Origin: an uncultured Alphaproteobacteria bacterium
GTDB lineage: Bacteria > Pseudomonadota > Alphaproteobacteria > Micropepsales > Micropepsaceae
Direction: 5' to 3'
DNA length: 64,000 nucleotides
Assembly (NCBI GenBank): GCA_963805005.1
Contig: CAWDSJ010000001.1
Location: forward strand, 357,734 to 421,733
The stretch's first letter is position 1, and each line of letters opens with the position of its first letter. Both the position numbers and the translations under genes were made by a program. Below are positions 2,784 through 59,493 of the stretch, in pieces. The notes below the pieces were generated by a model that saw only the letters and a program-made list of their open reading frames with translations, was not told where the DNA came from and ran no database searches.

Positions 2784-3569
2784 GTGGCCGTGTCGCAATC
2801 AGAAGCTCCGGTCCTGATTGAACGCCGCGGTGCGATCGCTATCGTGACGCTCAACCGGCCGGCACGCCGCAACGGCGTGACAGTCGCAATGTGCGAACAG
2901 CTTTTCCGGGAACTGCGCGCGCTCGCCGCCGAAGATGCCAGCGTGCTCGTGCTTCGCGGTGCAGGCAGCGATTTTTCCGTGGGCGCGGATCTCGACGGGT
3001 CTCGCGAGGTGCAGGACTTTCCGACGCTGGCGCAGCTCGGCCCCGTTTATCATGCGGCGACGCTGCTGCACACGATGCCCCAGGTCACGATTGCCGCAAT
3101 CGACGGCGGCTGCGCCGGCGCCGCGCTGGGCTGGGCGTGCGCGTGCGATTTTCGTTTCGCCTCGGATCGCGCGCGGTTCTCGACGGCGTTTCTCAAGCTC
3201 GGCATCTCCGGCGACATGGGCCTCGCCTGGTCGCTCTGCCGCATCGTGGGCGGGGCGCGGGCGCGCGAGCTACTTTTCTATCCCGACAAGATCACGGCGC
3301 AAAAGTCGCTCGAATTCGGTCTCGTCACCCGGCTTTTCGGCGCCGACGCCCTGCACGACGCGACGATGGCGCTTGCCGAAGAGCTGGCGGCGCGCAATCC
3401 TTTCGCGCTGCGCATGATGAAGGCCAATCTCGTTTCGGCGGAGACGCTGAACATCCCGGAGTTCATCGAGATCGAGGCCGCCCGCCATCTCCACACGATG
3501 ACGAGTTCGGTATTCGGCGGTGGTCGCGCCGCGGATGCGAGCAGTCCTGAAAAGCGCGAAGAGACGTGA
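2784..3569 (+). CDS. Enoyl-CoA hydratase/isomerase
   Basis: FSVGADL, VTIAAIDGGCAGAALGWACACDFRFA, FSTAFLKLGISGDMG. Confidence 0.88.
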   Translation: MAVSQSEAPVLIERRGAIAIVTLNRPARRNGVTVAMCEQLFRELRALAAEDASVLVLRGAGSDFSVGADLDGSREVQDFPTLAQLGPVYHAATLLHTMPQVTIAAIDGGCAGAALGWACACDFRFASDRARFSTAFLKLGISGDMGLAWSLCRIVGGARARELLFYPDKITAQKSLEFGLVTRLFGADALHDATMALAEELAARNPFALRMMKANLVSAETLNIPEFIEIEAARHLHTMTSSVFGGGRAADASSPEKREET

Positions 3570-5083
3570 CGCAATTCCGTCAAGGGAGGCTGTGCATGAC
3601 GATCGCCGAAACGCCCGCGCGCCCGATGGGCATGGGCTATGCCTTGAGCTGGCAAGCCGCGCGCAATCCGGACAGGCCGGCATTGACAATGGGCGAGAAG
3701 ACCTACTCGCGCCTGGCGCTGGATCGCGCCGCCAACCGTCTGGCGCGCGCCTTGGCGCAGTTGGGCGTGGGTAAGGACGATCGCGCCGCCGTCGTCCTGC
3801 CGACAGGACCGCGTCATCAGATCGCGAGTTTCGCGCTGTGGAAGCTCGGTGCGACCGTCATTCCCATGCCGCCGAAACTGGCCGATCTGGAGTTGCAGCA
3901 GATCGCCGAGAAAGGCGATCCCAAAATCGTGATCGGGGTCGATCCCGCGCGGCTTCCCGGACGCGCCGCGGTGCCGGCAGACTTCGAGCCTGATCCGGCA
4001 CTGTCGGACGAACCGATGCCGGAGGTTGTCTCTACGATCTGGAAAGCCGCCACCAGCGGCGGCAGCACCGGCGTTCCCAAGCTGATCTACGAAAGAAGAA
4101 GCTCGCTCGTCCATCCGCTGGAGCCGAACCCGATGCTGCGCATGCGCGCCGAGGACGTGATCCTTCATCCTGCGGGCGCCTATCACAATGCGAGCTTTTC
4201 GCAGACGAATTGGGCGCTGTGCTGGGGCAGCCACGTCGTTCTCATGCAGCGCTTCGATCCCTTGGAATGGCTAAAGATCGTGCAGCATTACGGCGTGCGC
4301 TGGGCCTATCTGGTGCCGACCATGATGAGCCGAATCCTCGCGCTGCCGGAGGAGGTGCGCAAAAGCTTTGACGTTTCCTCGATCGACATTGCGATCCACA
4401 TGGCTGCGCCCTGTCCGTCATGGGTGAAGGAAGCCTGGATCGAGTGGATCGGTCCCGAAAAGATCTGGGAGGTTTACGCGGGTACGGAAGGATACGGCGC
4501 CACCATGATCGGCGGCGTGGAGTGGCTCGCCCATCGCGGCTCGGTCGGCAAAGCCCCGCCGGGAACGGAGATCCGCGGCGAAGACGGCGCCATCCTTCCT
4601 GCCGGCGAGATCGGAGCGGTTCATTTCCGGCCCGGCGCCAATAACCTGTTCGGCCATCCCGACGTGCCGCTGAGTTACGGCGACATGGGCTGGCTCGATA
4701 CCGATGGGTATCTTTATCTCGCCGACCGGCGCACCGACATGATCCTGACGGGCGGCGTCAATCTCTATCCCGCCGAGATCGAAGCGGCAATCGAGCAATT
4801 CCCAGGCGTCGTTTCGGCCGCGGTCATCGGCTTGCCAGATTCCGATCTGGGCGCAAAAGCGCATGCTCTCATCGAGCTGGCGCCGGGTCGGAAATCTCCC
4901 GCACCTGTCGACTTGGGTGCGTTCCTCGCCACGCGGCTCTCACGGCACAAAATTCCGTACACGTGCGAGTTCGTGACCGACTCCCTGCGCGACGAAGCCG
5001 GTAAAATTCGGCGCCAGCGCCTGCGCGAGGAACGACAGGTTGGCTCCCGTCTGCCGCTGCGCGCGGCATTCGGAAGAGACTAA
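3566..5083 (+). CDS. AMP-binding acyl-CoA synthetase (start may be 3596)
   Basis: TSGGSTGVPK P-loop, YAGTEG, GDMGWLDTDGYLYLADRRTDMILTGGVNLYPAEIE, KIRR. Confidence 0.88.
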   Translation: MTQFRQGRLCMTIAETPARPMGMGYALSWQAARNPDRPALTMGEKTYSRLALDRAANRLARALAQLGVGKDDRAAVVLPTGPRHQIASFALWKLGATVIPMPPKLADLELQQIAEKGDPKIVIGVDPARLPGRAAVPADFEPDPALSDEPMPEVVSTIWKAATSGGSTGVPKLIYERRSSLVHPLEPNPMLRMRAEDVILHPAGAYHNASFSQTNWALCWGSHVVLMQRFDPLEWLKIVQHYGVRWAYLVPTMMSRILALPEEVRKSFDVSSIDIAIHMAAPCPSWVKEAWIEWIGPEKIWEVYAGTEGYGATMIGGVEWLAHRGSVGKAPPGTEIRGEDGAILPAGEIGAVHFRPGANNLFGHPDVPLSYGDMGWLDTDGYLYLADRRTDMILTGGVNLYPAEIEAAIEQFPGVVSAAVIGLPDSDLGAKAHALIELAPGRKSPAPVDLGAFLATRLSRHKIPYTCEFVTDSLRDEAGKIRRQRLREERQVGSRLPLRAAFGRD

Positions 5084-51652: not shown

Positions 51653-51726
51653 TTTTTCACACGGAGGCACAAAGACACAGAGAGTGTAACGATGCCGCTG
51701 CGCGGCTGCGTGTCTCTACGTGAAAA
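51653..51726. repeat. REP-like inverted repeat (CACACGGAG family)
   Basis: TTTTTCACACGGAG ... CTCTACGTGAAAAA; the interior resembles 59435-59475. Confidence 0.7.
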
Positions 51727-52730: not shown

Positions 52731-52933
52731 GGACACGAAGGCGCACGAAGTGCCGATCCACGATCATGCCGCTCCTGCGGGAAGCGCGGAATTTTGCTGA
52801 CGATTGTTCACGCGGAGAGTCCACTGTCTCTCCGTGCCTCCATGTGAAAAAAAAGCGATCTCGCTTTCATCTGCGCTTCGCGCGGAAGCCGCGCCGGCCC
52901 TTATTTTCGTGCGCCTTCGTGTCCTCGTGGTGA
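52731..52933. repeat. Nested REPIN-like composite, inverted homolog of 48722-48985
   Basis: Perfect 19-bp IR 52731-52749 / 52906-52924; inner TTCACGCGGAG / CTCCATGTGAA; core TTCATCTGCGCTTCGCGC. Confidence 0.8.
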
Positions 52934-53240: not shown

Positions 53241-54799
53241 ATGAACGCTGTCAGTGAAGGCTCGGTGCACTGGGATCCTTACGATCCCAAGTATTTCGCC
53301 AATCCGTACCCGACCTTCCGGCGCCTGCGCGAGGAAGCGCCCCTCTATTACAACGAGCAGTACGATTTTTACGCAGTGAGCCGCTACGAGGACGTCGAGC
53401 GGGGGCTGACCGACCGGAACACCTTCATCTCGGGCCGCGGGGCCGTTCTCGAGTTCATCAAGTCGGACACTCCGATCCCGAAGGGTATTTTCATCTTCGA
53501 GGATCCCCCCTCCACACCATCCATCGCGGCCTGCTCACGCGGGTCTTCACGCCGAAAAAGATGGCGGCGCTCGAGCCCCGGATTCGCACGTTCTGCGCCG
53601 AGGCGCTCGATCCGTTGGTGGGAGGCGGCGCATTCAATTTCATCGACGATCTCGGTGGCAAGATGCCCATGCGGGTCATCGGCATGCTGCTGGGCATTCC
53701 GGAGCAGGACCAGCAGGCGGTCCGCGCCCGCGCCGACGCTGCTCTGGCGACCGAAGCCGGCAAGCCGATGGACGTGGCGAGCTTCCCTTTCGTCGCCGAA
53801 GGTTTTGACGAGTATATCGAGTGGCGGGCCAAGCACCCGTCCGACGATCTGATGACCGAGCTCTTGAATGCGGAATTCGTCGACGAGACGGGCGAGACTC
53901 GACGGCTGAGCCGCGACGAGGTGCTGATGTTCGTCAACATCCTCGCCAGCGCCGGCAACGAGACCACCAATCGCCTGGTCGGCTGGACCGGCAAGGTGCT
54001 CGCCGAACACCCCGATCAGCGGCGCCAGATCTACGAGAATCGAGCCCTCATCCCGCAGGCCATCGAGGAGATTCTCAGATACGAGCCGCCGGGACCTTCC
54101 ATCGGCCGCTATGTGGCGCGAGACGCCGAATTCCATGGGACGAAGGTGCCGGAAGGCAGCGCCATTCTCTTCCTGGCGGCGGCCGCGAACCGCGACGAGC
54201 GCAAGTTCGTCAACGGCGAGCGTTTCGACATTCACCGGGAGCGCGTGCCGCACTTTACCTTTGGTTTTGGGTTCCATGCCTGTCTCGGCAATGCGCTGGC
54301 GCGTGTCGAAGGCCGGATTGCGCTGGACGAGTTGCTGAACCGCTTCCCCGAATGGGATGTCGATCTCGAGAATGCTCGCCTCTCCTCCACCTCGACCGTG
54401 CGCGGCTGGGAGACGCTGCCGGCGTTCACCCCGAAGGCCAAGCGGAGCGCGCAGCCCAAGCCCGCCGCCGAGGCTCCGCCCGCGGCGGCCCCTGCGCTCG
54501 CCGGCGCGGAGAGCTGGAAAATGACCCTCAAGACGCCGATGGGTCCTCAAGATATGACGATGCAAATCGTCCGCCAGGGCGATGCCTTCACCGGCCGGAT
54601 CGACAGCCCAATGGGCTCGGAGACCATCAACAACGGCAAAATCGCCGGGGACACGCTCAGCTGGACCATGGACGTGAAGAAGCCCACGGCCATCAAGCTG
54701 AGCTTCGAGGTGAAGGCGACAGGCGAGACCATGAGCGGCCACGCCAAGCTGGGCATGTTCGGCAAGGCGGAACTGAGCGGCCAGCGCATCCCGTCGTAG
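53241..54799 (+). CDS. Cytochrome P450 fused to a C-terminal beta-rich domain; -1 frameshift in a C6 run near 53505-53510 (likely sequence error)
   Basis: WDPYD...FANPYPTFRRLREEAP, ASAGNETT, EILR, FGFGFHACLG. One extra C restores DPPLHTIHRGLLTRVFTPKKM. Confidence 0.82.
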
Positions 54800-54836
54800 C
54801 CGGCGCAAAACTGCGCGCACGTTTGCGGGAACCGCT

Positions 54837-55916
54837 CTAGAAATCGTAAGCGACCTGCAGCTTGTAAAGCGTGCTCGCGGTGAGCTGTCCCGAAGTGCCT
54901 TCGATCGCCACGCTCGATGCCGCGTTGGTGTACTGATAGATCGGCTTCTCGATATCGCCGAAGACGCGGAATTGGTTGATCTGCAGCGTGAAGCCGGGTG
55001 CGATCATCACGCGCTCGTAGCCCGAGTTCAACGAATTGGCATTGAAGCCCGTGTCGTGCTCGCGCCAGCTGTTGATGAATTGCAGAACGATGCCGAGATC
55101 GTCGAGCGGTCCTGCCTGTCCGAGATCGTACCTAAGCCCGGCGGCGGTATCGAACTCGTTGCCGGGCCGGTAGCTGTCGCGCGTCATGACGGCGAACTGA
55201 TACTTGCCGTTCACGAAATAGGACAGGGCATCGATCATGCCGAAATCGCCGGTGTGGTAACCGCCGATCATCAGGTCGGTACTTCCGGTGCCGGGCAGGC
55301 TGTCGCGATCGAATTCCGCGCCGCCCAGCGGACCGTTGGGTCCGGTGTAGTTGCCGGTGGGCAGTTTCGTGCCGAACATCAGGCCGGTGGATTGATCCGG
55401 CGACAGTCCCGTGTAGGTCGCCGCGATCTGCATGTCTCCCAGATCGGTGAGGCGGCCGGTATAGACGGTGCCCGCCGGGCCGAAGACGGTTCCATCGTCC
55501 GTCGTTGTCAGGCGGCGGGCAAAGGTCGGCAGTTCGGCCGTGACGAGCCAGTCCGAGTTGATCTGATACTCCGCTCCCACCGTGTAGAAGCTGGTGTTGA
55601 TCATCTTGTCGCCGTTGTCGGCGCCGGGTGCGCTGGAGCCGTGTTCCCAGTTCTGGTTCTGGTTCATGTAGTCATAGCGAAACCAGACCGACACGCCGGC
55701 CATGCCGGCCATACCGTTCATCGAATTGGGCATCGATGTCAGCATGCCAAACCCGACATCGAAAACGCCGCAGCCGCAGGCGCAGGCGTCGGCTGTAGTG
55801 GGATGGAGGGCTGCGGCCAGCAGGAGCGGCGCGGCGGCGATACGCGATGCAATAAGTCCGGCAGACAGGCAACGGGAAGAAAGGCGCGACAGCGCGCGCT
55901 GAGAGCGGTTCGACAT
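54837..55916 (-). CDS. Outer-membrane beta-barrel with N-terminal CACGC motif (putative metal transporter)
   Basis: Signal peptide ending ADA, then CACGC and Met-rich MPNSMNGMAGM; alternating beta-strands; GTKLPTG; C-terminal YDF. Confidence 0.7.
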   Translation of the reverse strand: MSNRSQRALSRLSSRCLSAGLIASRIAAAPLLLAAALHPTTADACACGCGVFDVGFGMLTSMPNSMNGMAGMAGVSVWFRYDYMNQNQNWEHGSSAPGADNGDKMINTSFYTVGAEYQINSDWLVTAELPTFARRLTTTDDGTVFGPAGTVYTGRLTDLGDMQIAATYTGLSPDQSTGLMFGTKLPTGNYTGPNGPLGGAEFDRDSLPGTGSTDLMIGGYHTGDFGMIDALSYFVNGKYQFAVMTRDSYRPGNEFDTAAGLRYDLGQAGPLDDLGIVLQFINSWREHDTGFNANSLNSGYERVMIAPGFTLQINQFRVFGDIEKPIYQYTNAASSVAIEGTSGQLTASTLYKLQVAYDF

Positions 55917-55987
55917 AGTATCCTCGTTCGATTTGAAGCCGTGCCGACTTCACGTAATGCGAAGCCGGCTGATGCAGGGTTCGGCGT

Positions 55988-56359
55988 TCAAACGAACGGC
56001 GGTGGAGCCCGGGGTGATTGCAGCGCGTAGCGCGACGCGGTCTCGACCGCTGCCGCGTACCGCGGCCGGGCGCTAGTTTCGGTAAGCCGATGGGCCGGCA
56101 CGAATCCGGCCGGCCCCAGCAAGGTCGCAAAATGCGGCGCCGCCCCGAACGGACACAGACCCTTATGCTGATTGTCGCGCGACGGGATGGTCTTGCCGGG
56201 CAAGCCCGTGACATGGCCGGGCAGCGAGACGGCGCCGTACACCGTGCAGATGGTGAAAGGCGAGCCGGCCGACGCATTCGGCATCCAGCCAAGCGGCATC
56301 AACGCTTGCAGCATCACCGCCGCAAGCGCAAGCTGGATCGCGAATTGGCGCAAGCGCAT
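55988..56359 (-). CDS. DUF2946 family protein (CruR-like leader) ending in RAPP
   Basis: TM segment LALAAVMLQALMP, ICT, HKGLCPFG, C-terminal SPRAPP. Confidence 0.8.
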   Translation of the reverse strand: MRLRQFAIQLALAAVMLQALMPLGWMPNASAGSPFTICTVYGAVSLPGHVTGLPGKTIPSRDNQHKGLCPFGAAPHFATLLGPAGFVPAHRLTETSARPRYAAAVETASRYALQSPRAPPPFV

Positions 56360-56491
56360 GGTTTTCCCTTGCGGGTGACTATTGCCTCCTGGTCGACTGG
56401 CGGTCAAATGCTCAAATGCCACATTGCTCGCGGCAGTTCCGCCGGACGATACGCGCTCAACGGCCGCCCATGACTTCGACGGGCTAGGACG

Positions 56492-56998
56492 ATGCGCTTT
56501 TCCCTGATCCTCGCCTTTCTCGCGCTGGCCGCCGCCGACACGCCATCGTTCGCGGCCGCGCCGCCGCCGGTCAGCATTCGGAGCCTGTCGGATCTGACCG
56601 TCCCCGACACTCCGTTCAGCGAATCTGCCGACGCAGACGCCGATGTGGCGCGCGCCTTTGCCCAGGCACGCGCGCAGAACAAGCGCGTGCTGATCGATCT
56701 GGGCGCCAATTGGTGCGCCGACTGCCGCATCCTTTCGGGCATCATGGAGCTTCCGGAGGTCCACCGCTTTCTCGATGCCCATTACGCGATCGCAATCGTC
56801 GATGTCGGCCGCTTCAATCGCAATCTGCAAATCCCGGCGCGCTTCGGAATCACCGGGCGGTTGCAAGGCGTACCCAGCATCCTGATCGCCAGCCCCGACG
56901 GCCAGCTTCTCAACGCCGGCCACATCTCAGCGCTGGACGACGCCCGCAGCATGACGCCGCAAGCCATCGTCGACTGGCTGGCGCAGTGGACGCAGTAG
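56492..56998 (+). CDS. Exported thioredoxin-like protein
   Basis: Signal peptide; LIDLGANWCADCR (CxxC); GVPSIL cis-Pro. Confidence 0.88.
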   Translation: MRFSLILAFLALAAADTPSFAAAPPPVSIRSLSDLTVPDTPFSESADADADVARAFAQARAQNKRVLIDLGANWCADCRILSGIMELPEVHRFLDAHYAIAIVDVGRFNRNLQIPARFGITGRLQGVPSILIASPDGQLLNAGHISALDDARSMTPQAIVDWLAQWTQ

Positions 56999-57075
56999 GC
57001 CTCCGCCGGGGCTAGCTTCGGCGGGCAAGGCTATCGTTTTTGGCGCGCAGCAGAGTAAAGCACGACGCTCCTTCC

Positions 57076-57222
57076 GATCGCTTTCACCACAAAGGACGCG
57101 AAGAACACGAAGATATGCCGGACACCTGCGCGAAGCGCCGATGAATTCGATATCGTATTTTGGCACACGGAGACATGGAGCCGCGGAGTGGCACCGATAC
57201 TCTCTCTGTGCCTCTGTGTGAG
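57076..57222. repeat. Composite repeat, left of kup
   Basis: 57076-57180 matches 59328-59432 as a direct repeat (7 mismatches in 105 by my count). Confidence 0.85.
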
Positions 57223-57324
57223 AAATTTTGCGCTTTGCGCCGCAAACCTGGATCGAGCGCAAGGAATCGTTCGTGGCTTATGCTTTAGAGTCTCCCCGAC
57301 CTTGAAGGCCGGCGCCGATTCGTC

Positions 57325-59280
57325 ATGAAGCTGCCGAGATTTCGCAGACCCGTTCGCGCTTCGCATGAAGCCGGGCCCGCGCATGGCAGCTCGGCGCTGC
57401 TGGCGGTGGGCGCGCTCGGCGTCGTCTATGGCGACATCGGCACTTCGCCGCTCTATGCGGTGAATTTCCTGTTCTTCGGCCAGACGCACATTGCGCGCAG
57501 CCCCGAGAATATCTGCGGCGGCATATCGCTCGTCGTCTGGGCCTTGACGCTCGTCATCGCCGCCAAATACGCCACCTTCGTGCTGCGCGCCGACAATGAC
57601 GGCGAGGGCGGGGTGTTCGCGCTCTACGGGCTGCTCGATAAATTCACGCGGCGCGGCATGCCGGCCCTGTTGTGGGTTCTGCTGCTGGGCGCCGGCCTTC
57701 TGCTCGGCGACGGCATGATTACGCCGGCGATCAGCGTGTTGTCGGCGGCGGAGGGAGTACGGGTCGCGACGCCGATGTTCGGCAATGCGGTCGTCCCGAT
57801 CACGCTCGTCATCCTGACGGCGCTGTTCGCGATGCAGTTCAAGGGCACGGGCGGGGTCGGGCGGATCTTCGGCCCGGTGATGATCGTCTGGTTTTTCGTC
57901 ATTGCCGGCCTTGGCCTCGTCCAGATCGTGCGACAGCCCGAAATCCTCAAGGCGTTCGATCCGTTGCTGGGACTGGCGTTTCTGGCGCATTGCGGCTGGC
58001 GCACGGGGCTAATGGTGCTGGGCGCCATCGTGCTCGTTTTGACCGGCGGCGAGGCGATGTATGCCGATTTGGGCCATTTCGGCGCCCGGCCGATCCGGCT
58101 GAGCTGGTTCGGCCTCGCATTTCCCTGTCTGCTCCTTAACTATCTGGGGCAGGGCGCATTCCTGCTCGGCGGCACAGCGCTCGCCGGCCACAATCTGTTC
58201 TACAGCATGGTTCCTGCGGGCTTCATCTTTCCGATGGTGGGGCTGGCGACCGCGGCCACCATCATCGCCTCGCAGGCGCTGATCTCGGGCGCATTCTCGC
58301 TGATCGCCCAAGCCATCGCGCTCGGCCTTTTTCCGCGGCTCACGATCAAGCACACCCATCATGCGCAGGCCGGCGAAGTCTATGTCCCCTTCGTCAACCG
58401 CGTCCTCTACGTCGGCTGCGTGGCTCTCGTCCTGGGCTTCCGCTCCAGCGCAGCGCTTGGCGCCGCTTACGGCCTCGCCGAATCCGGCGTGATGATCATT
58501 ACGTCGACGGCGATGTTCTCGATCGCGCGGCGCTACTGGAATTGGAGCCTGGCGCAAAGCGGCGGGCTGTTCGGCGCGGCAGCACTGGTCGACGGCGCCT
58601 TTCTCGTCGCCAATTCGCTGAAGGTTCTGGAAGGCGGCTGGGTGCCGTTATCGATCGGTCTGCTCGTCTTCTTCGTCATGGCGACCTGGCGCTGGGGACG
58701 CAAGATCACCTATGCCGGCTATTCCGCCAAGCACACCATGTCGATGAAGGAGCTTGTCGCACTGCACCGGAACGCCGCCAGCTATATCGAGCGGACGGCG
58801 ATCCTGATGGTGCCGGCGCCGGTTCATGCCGGGAGCGAACGCGCGCCGGCCCTGATGCAGCTTCTGTGGGACCGTCTGGGCGTTTTGCCGCGCAATCTGA
58901 TCTTCGTGCAGGTGGTCCATCCGAAGGTCCCCTATATCCACGACAGCCGCTATGCCGTGACTGTGTTCGAGCGCAACGCCAAAGGCAGCATCGTCCGCGT
59001 CGAACTCAAATTCGGCTTCATGGAGGAGCCCAATGTCGAAGCGGTGCTCGAAGACATGATCTCGCACAAGCAGATCGATCTTAGCGCCGACGAACGCAAC
59101 TGGATCGTGCATGTCAGCCACGAAAACCTCGTGCCGGAGAAAGTCATGCGGCCCGTGCGGCGGGTTCGGCTCAGAGTCTTCAACCTGCTGCGCTTCGTCT
59201 CTCGCCCCGCCTATTACCATTACGGCCTCGGCGACGAGGTGCAGCTTTCGGCGGAAATCCTGCCGGTGCATGTGCGATGA
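57325..59280 (+). CDS. kup: KUP/HAK/KT potassium transporter
   Basis: GVVYGDIGTSPLY, ADNDGEGGVFAL, GDGMITPAISVLSA, TGGEAMYADLGHFG, NYLGQGA, GFMEEP. Confidence 0.96.
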   Translation: MKLPRFRRPVRASHEAGPAHGSSALLAVGALGVVYGDIGTSPLYAVNFLFFGQTHIARSPENICGGISLVVWALTLVIAAKYATFVLRADNDGEGGVFALYGLLDKFTRRGMPALLWVLLLGAGLLLGDGMITPAISVLSAAEGVRVATPMFGNAVVPITLVILTALFAMQFKGTGGVGRIFGPVMIVWFFVIAGLGLVQIVRQPEILKAFDPLLGLAFLAHCGWRTGLMVLGAIVLVLTGGEAMYADLGHFGARPIRLSWFGLAFPCLLLNYLGQGAFLLGGTALAGHNLFYSMVPAGFIFPMVGLATAATIIASQALISGAFSLIAQAIALGLFPRLTIKHTHHAQAGEVYVPFVNRVLYVGCVALVLGFRSSAALGAAYGLAESGVMIITSTAMFSIARRYWNWSLAQSGGLFGAAALVDGAFLVANSLKVLEGGWVPLSIGLLVFFVMATWRWGRKITYAGYSAKHTMSMKELVALHRNAASYIERTAILMVPAPVHAGSERAPALMQLLWDRLGVLPRNLIFVQVVHPKVPYIHDSRYAVTVFERNAKGSIVRVELKFGFMEEPNVEAVLEDMISHKQIDLSADERNWIVHVSHENLVPEKVMRPVRRVRLRVFNLLRFVSRPAYYHYGLGDEVQLSAEILPVHVR

Positions 59281-59327
59281 GCGTGTCGCGCGATATGATT
59301 GGCACGCGGAGACCCGGCGCTCCTCCA

Positions 59328-59476
59328 GATCGCTTTCATCACAAAGGCCACGAAGAACACGAAGATATGCCGGACACCTGCGCGAAGCGCAGATGAATTC
59401 GATATCGCATTTCGGCACACGGAGACACGGAGACACGGAGGCACAGAGAGTGTGACGATGCGGCTCCGTGTGAGAA
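59328..59476. repeat. Composite repeat, right of kup
   Basis: Direct repeat of 57076-57180; tandem CACGGAGA units. Confidence 0.85.
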
Positions 59477-59493
59477 CTTTTGCGCGCGATCGT

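Follow-up and report, generated by a model that had tools for sequence, protein, structure and literature searches.

It is likely that two adjacent genes in the genome of an uncultured alphaproteobacterium of the family Micropepsaceae (GenBank assembly GCA_963805005.1, contig CAWDSJ010000001.1) form a two-gene unit, in which a leader peptide of the DUF2946 CruR/CutF family controls how an outer-membrane channel for copper or another thiophilic metal is translated. The whole stretch of DNA analysed, referred to here as the window, is 64,000 nucleotides (nt) in length (contig positions 357,734 to 421,733, forward strand). On its minus strand are an open reading frame (ORF) for an exported leader of 123 amino acids (aa; 55988-56359), then 71 nt, and then the gene for a 359-aa β-barrel (54837-55916). 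The initial annotation of this locus had described the leader, the 71-nt gap and a barrel with a CACGC mature N-terminus, and its coordinates and motifs were all correct, with RAPP followed by PFV and not directly by the stop codon. The features are listed below; the leader stop and the barrel ATG were read from the sequence.

55988-56359 (-): leader ORF, 123 aa, ATG at 56359; candidate exported arrest peptide of the DUF2946/CruR type
56153-56155 (-): codon of Cys69 (CPFG), aligning to the first Cys of the canonical CxxC, with 47 residues between C69 and Arg117
56000-56011 (-): RAPP codons CGG GCT CCA CCG, the predicted ribosome arrest site, followed by CCG TTC GTT and the stop
55988-55990 (-): leader stop TGA
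55925-55998 (-): extended stem-loop, with an outer helix of the leader end and stop GUUCGUUUGAAC with UUCAAAUCGAACG, and an inner G+C-rich hairpin
55917-55987 (-): intergenic spacer, 71 nt
55921-55925 (-): barrel Shine-Dalgarno (SD) sequence GAGGA, with 4 nt (UACU) between its end and the ATG
55914-55916 (-): barrel ATG
54837-55916 (-): barrel gene, 359 aa, C-terminus ...AYDF; uncharacterised outer-membrane β-barrel of the COG4313/FapF fold class, with 12 predicted strands
55770-55784 (-): CACGC codons (C45, C47, C49), the first residues past the predicted AxA signal-peptidase site
55689-55751 (-): linker FGMLTSMPNSMNGMAGMAGVS in the N-terminal part, joining the Cys motif to strand 1 and including a 6-residue insertion
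56378-56407 (-): promoter-like TTGACC-18-AATAGT upstream of the leader, a consensus match only
56492-56998 (+): divergent gene for an exported thioredoxin-fold protein, 168 aa, active site WCADC, Thioredoxin_7

Because the barrel gene converges downstream on a cytochrome P450 gene, the leader-barrel unit is bicistronic. The leader ATG is preceded by AGGGA, and an AACGAGG(A/G) box at the barrel SD sequence is also present at the SD sequences of the closest relatives. A search of the divergent promoter region (56340-56510) for inverted repeats resembling operators found none, a terminator scan returned chance-level matches only, and an Rfam scan of 54500-57400 gave no match. No RNA sequencing runs with this locus were found; three metagenome DNA runs share 7-16 % of sampled words. 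For comparison, 80 loci with barrel relatives were collected from species-representative genomes; locus-wide counts use 81 loci, and the leader survey uses the 75 loci with at least 450 nt upstream.

The leader peptide and its RNA

The leader product reads MRLRQFAIQLALAAVMLQALMPLGWMPNASAGSPFTICTVYG...KGLCPFGAAPHF...LQSPRAPPPFV*. Its N-terminal signal-like segment (MRLRQFAIQLALAAVMLQALMPLGW...ASA|G), which from the sequence consists of MRLRQ, a 20-residue hydrophobic stretch and ASA|G, is conserved as an export segment across an alignment of 26 related leaders. There are two cysteines, C38 (TICT) and C69 (CPFG), with H65 and H76 near the latter, and the presence of CPFG in place of CxxC, reported by the initial annotation, is confirmed. 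RAPP occupies residues 117-120, three residues (PFV) before the stop as in CruR, and the 47 residues between C69 and RAPP, equivalent to 44 from the second CxxC position, fall at the family mode of 47-48.

The closest precedent for this layout is the CruR (Bp2923)-CrtA/BfrG-PepSY_TM operon of Bordetella pertussis (PMC9426467, PMC12914433), in which the gene of an exported DUF2946 leader likewise comes first and is followed by that of an outer-membrane transporter. CruR has RAPP 3 residues from its C-terminus, 45 residues lying between it and the Cys motif (PMC9426467), and a sensor Cys ~45-48 residues upstream, matching the geometry of the window leader. However, CruR has CxxC where the window leader has a single Cys (CPFG), and its target is a 22-stranded TonB-dependent receptor, whereas that of the window leader is a 359-aa barrel of 12 predicted strands, with no PepSY_TM gene. 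Arrest at RAPP and RGPP has been experimentally shown for CruR and others, in vitro in the case of CruR (PMC12992588), and both motifs are strongly avoided elsewhere in proteomes.

Against the Pfam DUF2946 profile (PF11162), the window leader scores 16.3 bits, below the cut-off of 23.7 (E = 0.017), in a match covering profile positions 3-117 of 117. Of the 26 related leaders, 24 match DUF2946 at E<=0.1 (best 9e-9). The assignment to DUF2946 made by the initial annotation is thus upheld by the CruR layout and by the relatives, but not by the leader's own Pfam score, and membership rests on architecture and relatives. A PF11162 search of the window's own genome, using the hidden Markov model (HMM), did not recover the leader, therefore HMM-based surveys under-count leaders of this kind.

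A same-strand leader ORF ending in [RQHT][AG]PP is present in 58 of the 75 loci (~77 %), with RAPP in 25 and RGPP in 20, and the leader-bearing loci come from Alpha-, Beta- and Gammaproteobacteria and from Binataceae. The distance from motif to stop is exactly 3 residues in 38 of these 58 leaders and 4 in ten others. In the alignment of 26 related leaders, three columns alone are invariant, those of Cys69, Pro119 and Pro120, and the second leader cysteine, C38, is not among them. In 43 of 50 leaders, 45-49 residues separate the invariant Cys from [RQH][AG]PP. The canonical CxxC is kept in 8 of the 50 and replaced by C[PAV][FY][AG] in most barrel-linked leaders, the retained Cys aligning to the first Cys of CxxC. 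Many leaders have His near this Cys, with His tracts in gammaproteobacterial versions, and the spacer to the barrel gene, 71 nt in the window, is 33-158 nt in relatives. The motif alone is weak evidence, because the window's genome (62 % G+C) contains 46 stop-to-stop ORFs that are 60 aa or longer and have R[AG]PP at their end; the weight of the RAPP leader comes from its conservation across phyla.

Outside the window, at C1:3113519-3116316 (+), the same genome encodes a canonical 139-aa DUF2946 leader (...TCPLCQ...46 residues...RAPPSF*), directly upstream of a TonB-dependent receptor ending ...FFAGLSKSF. Since this canonical CPLC leader and TonB receptor pair is also present, both leader subtypes coexist in one genome. 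In barrel loci of Anaeromyxobacteraceae, Gemmatimonadales and Acidobacteriota (L022 3196-3675, L027 2854-3327, L028 ~3340-3683) there is no R[AG]PP leader. A different small exported Cys/His-rich ORF is found before the barrel (CNCHHG, CQCRGMMGNGHH, CTMSCC), with some ends proline-rich, and these ORFs may be a separate leader type.

The end of the leader ORF is complementary to the region of the barrel SD sequence. In the window, the final codons of the leader together with its stop (G UUC GUU UGA AC) pair with UUCAAAUCGAAC-G, just 5' of and into GAGGA, in a fold that encloses the inner G+C-rich hairpin (minimum free energy -44.8 kcal/mol). The same geometry of leader end and SD sequence is present in other lineages, with different, lineage-specific sequences:

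L006: 5' arm CCUUCGGUCU, 3' arm AGACCGAAGG
Caulobacterales-type loci: 5' arm GUCCUGA, 3' arm UCAGGAC
L047: 5' arm CCGGUUUUCGG, 3' arm CCGAGAGGAAAACCGG
L058: 5' arm CGUCUC, 3' arm GAGACG

As the lengths of the spacers vary too much for an RNAalifold alignment, duplex permutation and ribosome-masking tests were used instead, on 47 loci. Cognate duplexes between leader end and SD sequence have a mean of -13.97 kcal/mol, against -11.1 kcal/mol for non-cognate pairs, a value reached by none of 20000 permutations. They are also stronger than those with same-locus control windows (p ~0.006) and with shuffled SD windows (p = 6e-7). On average, the SD window has a probability of 0.32 of being unpaired and so is mostly paired. 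When the mRNA is masked to a point 13 nt beyond the first Pro codon of the motif, the codon that occupied the P site in the CruR toeprint (PMC12992588), this value rises to 0.47. The gain in accessibility is +0.149 at the PP site and -0.005 for an equal 15-nt step further upstream (p = 3e-6). These effects are moderate in size, and stall-dependent unmasking of the barrel ribosome-binding site, as for CutF, is considered probable.

In the CutF-CutO-CutG system of Rhodobacter capsulatus (PMC9973294; bioRxiv 10.1101/2025.02.05.636593), a DUF2946-family leader is exported co-translationally and its stall melts a stem-loop masking the next gene's ribosome-binding site. The RNA layout in the window, with its short spacer and its hairpin between leader end and SD sequence, resembles CutF more closely than the Rho-dependent CruR, which has a spacer of 162 nt with a Rho site as opposed to 71 nt with an SD-linked hairpin. 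CutF itself has CxxxC, a different proline tail and a periplasmic multicopper oxidase as its copper-induced target, whereas the target here is an outer-membrane barrel.

The barrel and its gene neighbourhood

The barrel protein has a long signal peptide ending ...HPTTADA and a mature start CACGCGVFDVGFGMLTSMPNSMNGMAGMAGVSVWFRYDYM, where CACGCGVFDVG at the mature end is followed by the linker FGMLTSMPNSMNGMAGMAG. C45, C47 and C49 are the only cysteines of the mature protein. No family was found in Pfam or NCBIfam, and a profile search of PDB sequences returned noise only (M17 aminopeptidases at E>0.1). A word-indexed search gave more than 1411 homologues, all unnamed, and an exhaustive profile search gave 1004 clusters at E<=1e-3 (clustered at 50 % identity), of which 529 were at E<=1e-10. 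ACACGCG[VI]FDVG stands straight after the AxA site in 121 of 121 best matches and in 78 of the 81 genome loci, and exactly three Cys, those of the motif, are present in 118 of 120 mature homologues. More distant members, including a Ralstonia solanacearum megaplasmid protein, have ACxxCGC[ST]L..DW at the same place. Because these also carry CxxCGC there, the three-cysteine (Cys3) tip is a signature of the whole superfamily.

The initial annotation had regarded the joint absence of CACGC and DUF2946 linkage from homologues as telling against its proposal; the motif is conserved as given above and the leader is present in about three quarters of the loci, so that the proposal survived this check. 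The Met-rich stretch that it had included as a feature of the module did not hold up, being private to the window protein, in which the linker has five Met in 21 residues through a private insertion, as against 0-2 Met in ~14 residues in 115 homologues.

An AlphaFold2 model of the mature barrel (mean predicted local distance difference test (pLDDT) score 89, predicted template modelling score 0.86) is read as having 12 strands. Foldseek matched it to FapF (5O65) and to the COG4313 channel Pput2725 (4RL8), both at E ~1e-11, with target-normalised template modelling scores of ~0.65-0.75. The distant superfamily member P0172 matches PF13557 (Phenol_MetA_deg; 32.4 bits, cut-off 22) and another member, P0259, has a weak match to the FapF model; the window barrel itself has no match to PF13557 at E<=1. 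Pput2725 and FapF, the best structural matches, are 12-stranded proteins of ~270-300 residues in which a segment before strand 1 lies in the lumen, and in Pput2725 these residues almost close the channel (PMC4493636). By analogy, the ~30 residues from C45 to the first strand of the window barrel, modelled at pLDDT 55-75 in the mature form, are likely to be an element of the lumen or of its periplasmic mouth. The term plug-less, used in the initial annotation, is therefore apt relative to TonB-dependent receptors, but the COG4313/FapF fold relatives do insert an N-terminal segment into the lumen. The window barrel differs from these relatives in its Cys3 tip, in its long, highly conserved acidic loops and in its linkage to metal and thiol genes, whereas COG4313/FapF proteins are linked to genes for aromatic-compound catabolism or amyloid.

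High conservation and an acidic or polar character are common to all six predicted outer loops (for example GPLGGAEFDRDSLPGTGSTD, TTTDDGT and NADPLNSGYER). Such conservation is unusual for outer-membrane proteins and suggests that the loops either form a specific binding site on the outside or pack into the pore.

Other classes of protein were considered. The conclusion of the initial annotation that the barrel is too short to be a TonB-dependent receptor is borne out, this class being ruled out by the length of 359 aa, the 12 predicted strands, the lack of Pfam TonB_dep_Rec or Plug domains and the absence of such receptors among the fold matches. PcoB-like and general-porin readings were set aside, as these are not near the top of the fold matches. 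A lipoprotein anchored at the first Cys is judged unlikely, since the sequence departs from the lipobox [LVI][ASTVI][GAS]C. The family signal end is A-x-A|C, in which -3 is usually Ala and -2 varies freely, including D, E, Q, R, W and Y; because of this freedom at -2, signal peptidase I fits better than a lipobox. Among copper-tied outer-membrane barrels, to which the window barrel is proposed to belong, OprC uses Cys and Met to bind copper, and the N-terminal region of PcoB is rich in Met and His. OprC and NosA are TonB-dependent receptors, and none of OprC, NosA, PcoB and CopB has a CxCxC mature N-terminus.

Clustering of all ORFs from the 81 loci identified the following recurrent neighbours of the barrel gene:

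TlpA-like AhpC-TSA/Redoxin exported protein (WCxxC): 34 of 81 loci, directly after the barrel, often with a 10-nt overlap
PCuAC copper chaperone (120 bits): 7 of 81 loci, within the locus
Thioredoxin_7 family of the window: 6 of 81 loci, window included, adjacent, in one locus at the downstream overlapping position
TonB-dependent receptor: 3 of 81 loci (L023, L056, L061), directly downstream of the barrel

A thioredoxin-fold or PCuAC gene is present in at least 43 of the 81 loci, a lower bound as many contigs end nearby. Of the metal-specific genes, PCuAC alone recurs as a neighbour; among the 81 loci there is no recurrence of efflux, ars, mer or czc genes, nor of multicopper oxidases. The thioredoxin-fold protein of the window matches Thioredoxin_7 at 38.2 bits (cut-off 27) and has the N-terminus MRFSLILAFLALAAA and the active site WCADC. 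The suggestion in the initial annotation that this exported thioredoxin could keep the barrel cysteines reduced gains support from the linkage of TlpA-like and Thioredoxin_7 genes to the barrel. In the TlpA-ScoI/CoxB and PCuAC pathway of Bradyrhizobium and its relatives, a thioredoxin-fold reductase keeps the copper-binding Cys of its partner reduced, and PCuAC carries Cu(I). The window differs from this pathway in that the presumed client is the N-terminal Cys3 of an outer-membrane barrel, and in that the thioredoxin is of the Thioredoxin_7 type and divergently transcribed.

Genes for AhpC_TSA, PCuAC and ScoC have been reported within DUF2946 operons (Roy et al.), and PCuAC, Sco and AhpC_TSA genes are found in operons related to that of CruR. 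Because the barrel has no Pfam domain, it is invisible to a domain-based operon survey. The occurrence of glyA, nrdR and rib genes near the barrel in Steroidobacteraceae-type loci was dismissed as lineage synteny. In three Caulobacteraceae loci (L018, L021, L024), a ~590-aa protein (cluster 37) follows the barrel.

One locus carries two leaders. On an R. solanacearum megaplasmid (L087; CP023017.1, 3147-10900), a DUF2946 gene is followed by a hypothetical protein, which is the barrel (CATCGC), by AhpC/TSA ("alkyl hydroperoxide reductase") and by a second DUF2946 gene. This second leader (CHYC...RGPPSLS*) heads genes for MoeZ-like, JAMM-type peptidase, MoaD/ThiS-like and CoA-transferase proteins, which look like a set for sulfur-carrier (thiocarboxylate) biosynthesis. 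The first leader ends GRPRDSPFLT, with no RAPP, and arsenite-oxidase-type genes are located divergently upstream.

Proposed copper uptake and competing explanations

The sequence of events envisaged is as follows. The leader would be synthesised and targeted for export, and by analogy with CruR, ApdA and ApdP the ribosome would stall at R117-A-P-P. The stalled ribosome would cover the last leader codons, freeing the SD sequence so that the barrel is translated; with no stall, the hairpin would re-form and barrel expression would be kept low. Metal bound by the nascent leader could set the length of the stall, the candidate ligands being the invariant Cys69, the neighbouring His and possibly Cys38, and on the CruR analogy the metal would most likely shorten the stall, such that the barrel is made when copper is scarce. 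The ~30 N-terminal residues of the barrel, starting Cys-x-Cys-x-Cys, are probably located in or below the lumen on the periplasmic side, where they could bind Cu(I) and hand it over to periplasmic chaperones such as PCuAC. A periplasmic thioredoxin may keep the three thiols reduced, this being the divergent WCADC protein in the window and TlpA-like proteins elsewhere.

Copper-repressed uptake is favoured because the leader is CruR-like and because copper-supply genes (PCuAC, TlpA-like and TonB receptors) are neighbours, and the barrel is probably a TonB-independent route for copper through the outer membrane. The full proposal is more tentative and somewhat less likely than not to hold as a whole: that CACGCG/CxxCGC barrels are a new class of small, 12-stranded, TonB-independent outer-membrane copper importers, with Cys3 in the lumen as a Cu(I) relay or gate that is kept reduced by thioredoxin, and with synthesis set by a single-Cys CruR-type arrest peptide that unmasks the ribosome-binding site.

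Little is understood of the way in which copper passes the bacterial outer membrane; the few known copper-specific outer-membrane transporters are all TonB-dependent receptors, diffusion through porins being assumed otherwise (PMC12914433, a paper of 2026). An outer-membrane copper channel of this type would add an energy-independent route with a built-in thiol relay, and would give the orphan TlpA-like genes of DUF2946 operons a client. The regulatory logic has already been published (CruR in 2022, CutF in 2021-2025, RAPP/RGPP surveys in 2025). Literature searches found no description of a barrel superfamily with a Cys3 tip, of the coupling of this barrel to DUF2946 leaders and periplasmic thioredoxins, of a single-Cys leader subtype, or of a hybrid between a CruR-type sensor and a CutF-type RNA switch, and the barrel family appears to be undescribed. 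In R. solanacearum and in many bacteria of soil, peat and fresh water, it stands where CruR-type operons have their transporter. The leaders widen the arrest-peptide field, in that one Cys and not CxxC is the conserved core and in that CruR-like sensors are combined with a probable RNA switch of the CutF kind. One compact two-gene system thereby allows a direct test of whether the stall is relieved or enhanced by metal.

Several observations weigh against this reading. The window leader lacks the CxxC that was shown to be necessary for copper sensing by CruR, and 17 of the 75 loci have no recognisable leader. About half of the loci have no thioredoxin or PCuAC gene within the DNA examined. The position of the Cys tip is modelled at modest confidence (pLDDT 36-65), and the conserved loops are rich in Asp, Glu, Asn and Thr, not in His or Met, which would suit a hard cation or an organic ligand equally. 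At the RNA level, the z-score of the window fold is only -1.78, masking raises the unpaired probability of the window SD sequence from 0.20 to 0.37, a moderate effect, and RNAalifold with nine close relatives recovered the helix between leader end and SD sequence with no double compensatory change. CutF, which has the same RNA design, is copper-induced, so the polarity could be the opposite. The analysis shows the anatomy of the genes, their conservation and linkage across the family, the fold class and the complementarity of the RNA; for every family member, stalling, a dependence on metal, which metal it is, the direction of regulation and whether transport is inward or outward are inferred.

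The opposite polarity is the best of the alternatives, although unlikely. Metal would then prolong the stall, as in CutF, and excess copper would induce the barrel, which would serve in defence by releasing or sequestering periplasmic Cu(I) at the outer membrane and be functionally like PcoB/CopB. Such a switch has the RNA design of cutF-cutO, with a short spacer and a hairpin over the ribosome-binding site that is opened by the stalled ribosome (PMC9973294); detoxification genes follow most CutF-like proteins, and the extra Met-rich insertion of the window barrel resembles copper-resistance proteins. However, the motif type, the spacing and the 3-residue tail of the leader are those of CruR and not of CutF. 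The recurrent PCuAC and TlpA-like reductases belong to the supply of copper for oxidase assembly, and there are TonB receptors in some loci, whereas neither efflux pumps nor multicopper oxidases recur and PcoB is absent from the top fold matches.

It is less likely again that the cue is something other than copper, either a different metal or a metalloid that binds thiols, such as As(III), Cd, Hg, Zn or Ni/Co, or the thiol-redox state of the periplasm. In the redox version, the two Cys of the leader would form a disulfide on export and the force of folding would free the stall, but C38 is not invariant. As(III) and Hg(II) are classically bound by three thiolates, which would suit the Cys3 tip, and the R. 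solanacearum unit of DUF2946, barrel and AhpC/TSA adjoins arsenite-oxidase genes; ars, mer and czc genes, however, do not recur. Thioredoxin-fold genes are by far the commonest neighbours of the barrel, His-only CutF-like leaders are linked to Ni/Co genes, and a Streptomyces RAPP leader with a Cys pair is found upstream of a thioredoxin gene (PMC12992588). Against these stands PCuAC, which is copper-specific and, in seven loci, the sole metal-specific neighbour to recur.

A monitor of secretion or envelope biogenesis like SecM, VemP or ApdA, in which pulling by Sec frees the stall and the barrel tracks export capacity, is very improbable. The leader does have an N-terminal signal-like segment, and the first RAPP leaders were found upstream of sec and yidC genes, but no Sec, YidC or BAM genes are linked to the barrel, and the fixed distance from Cys to RAPP, the His-rich tracts and the downstream genes point to sensing of a ligand or of redox state. 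Slighter still is the chance that there is no regulation, in which case the upstream ORF would encode just a small metal-binding protein, exported and expressed together with the barrel, and the RAPP tail and the hairpin would have no regulatory role. RAPP-ending ORFs are not rare by chance in a G+C-rich genome such as this one, but dozens of distant loci keep P119 and P120 without exception and at a set distance from the stop, RAPP/RGPP is otherwise strongly avoided in proteomes, and the complementarity to the SD region is lineage-specific.

Other features of the window

The cytochrome P450 gene that converges on the barrel gene (53241-54799, plus strand) is spread over two frames. The N-terminal part, from 53241 to ~53510 (...IFIFEDPP), is in one frame and 53561-54799 (starting ...ALEPRIR) is in another, the second part including a C-terminal Pro/Ala linker and a small β-rich domain. 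The split is due either to a frameshift, making this a pseudogene, or to a sequencing error around 53510-53560. On both sides of the kup potassium-transporter gene there are copies of a ~171-nt repeat (57063-57233 and 59315-59485, 84 % identical), and shorter pieces of it are present at 51659-51702 and 52851-52883; it looks like a dispersed intergenic repeat or a miniature mobile element.

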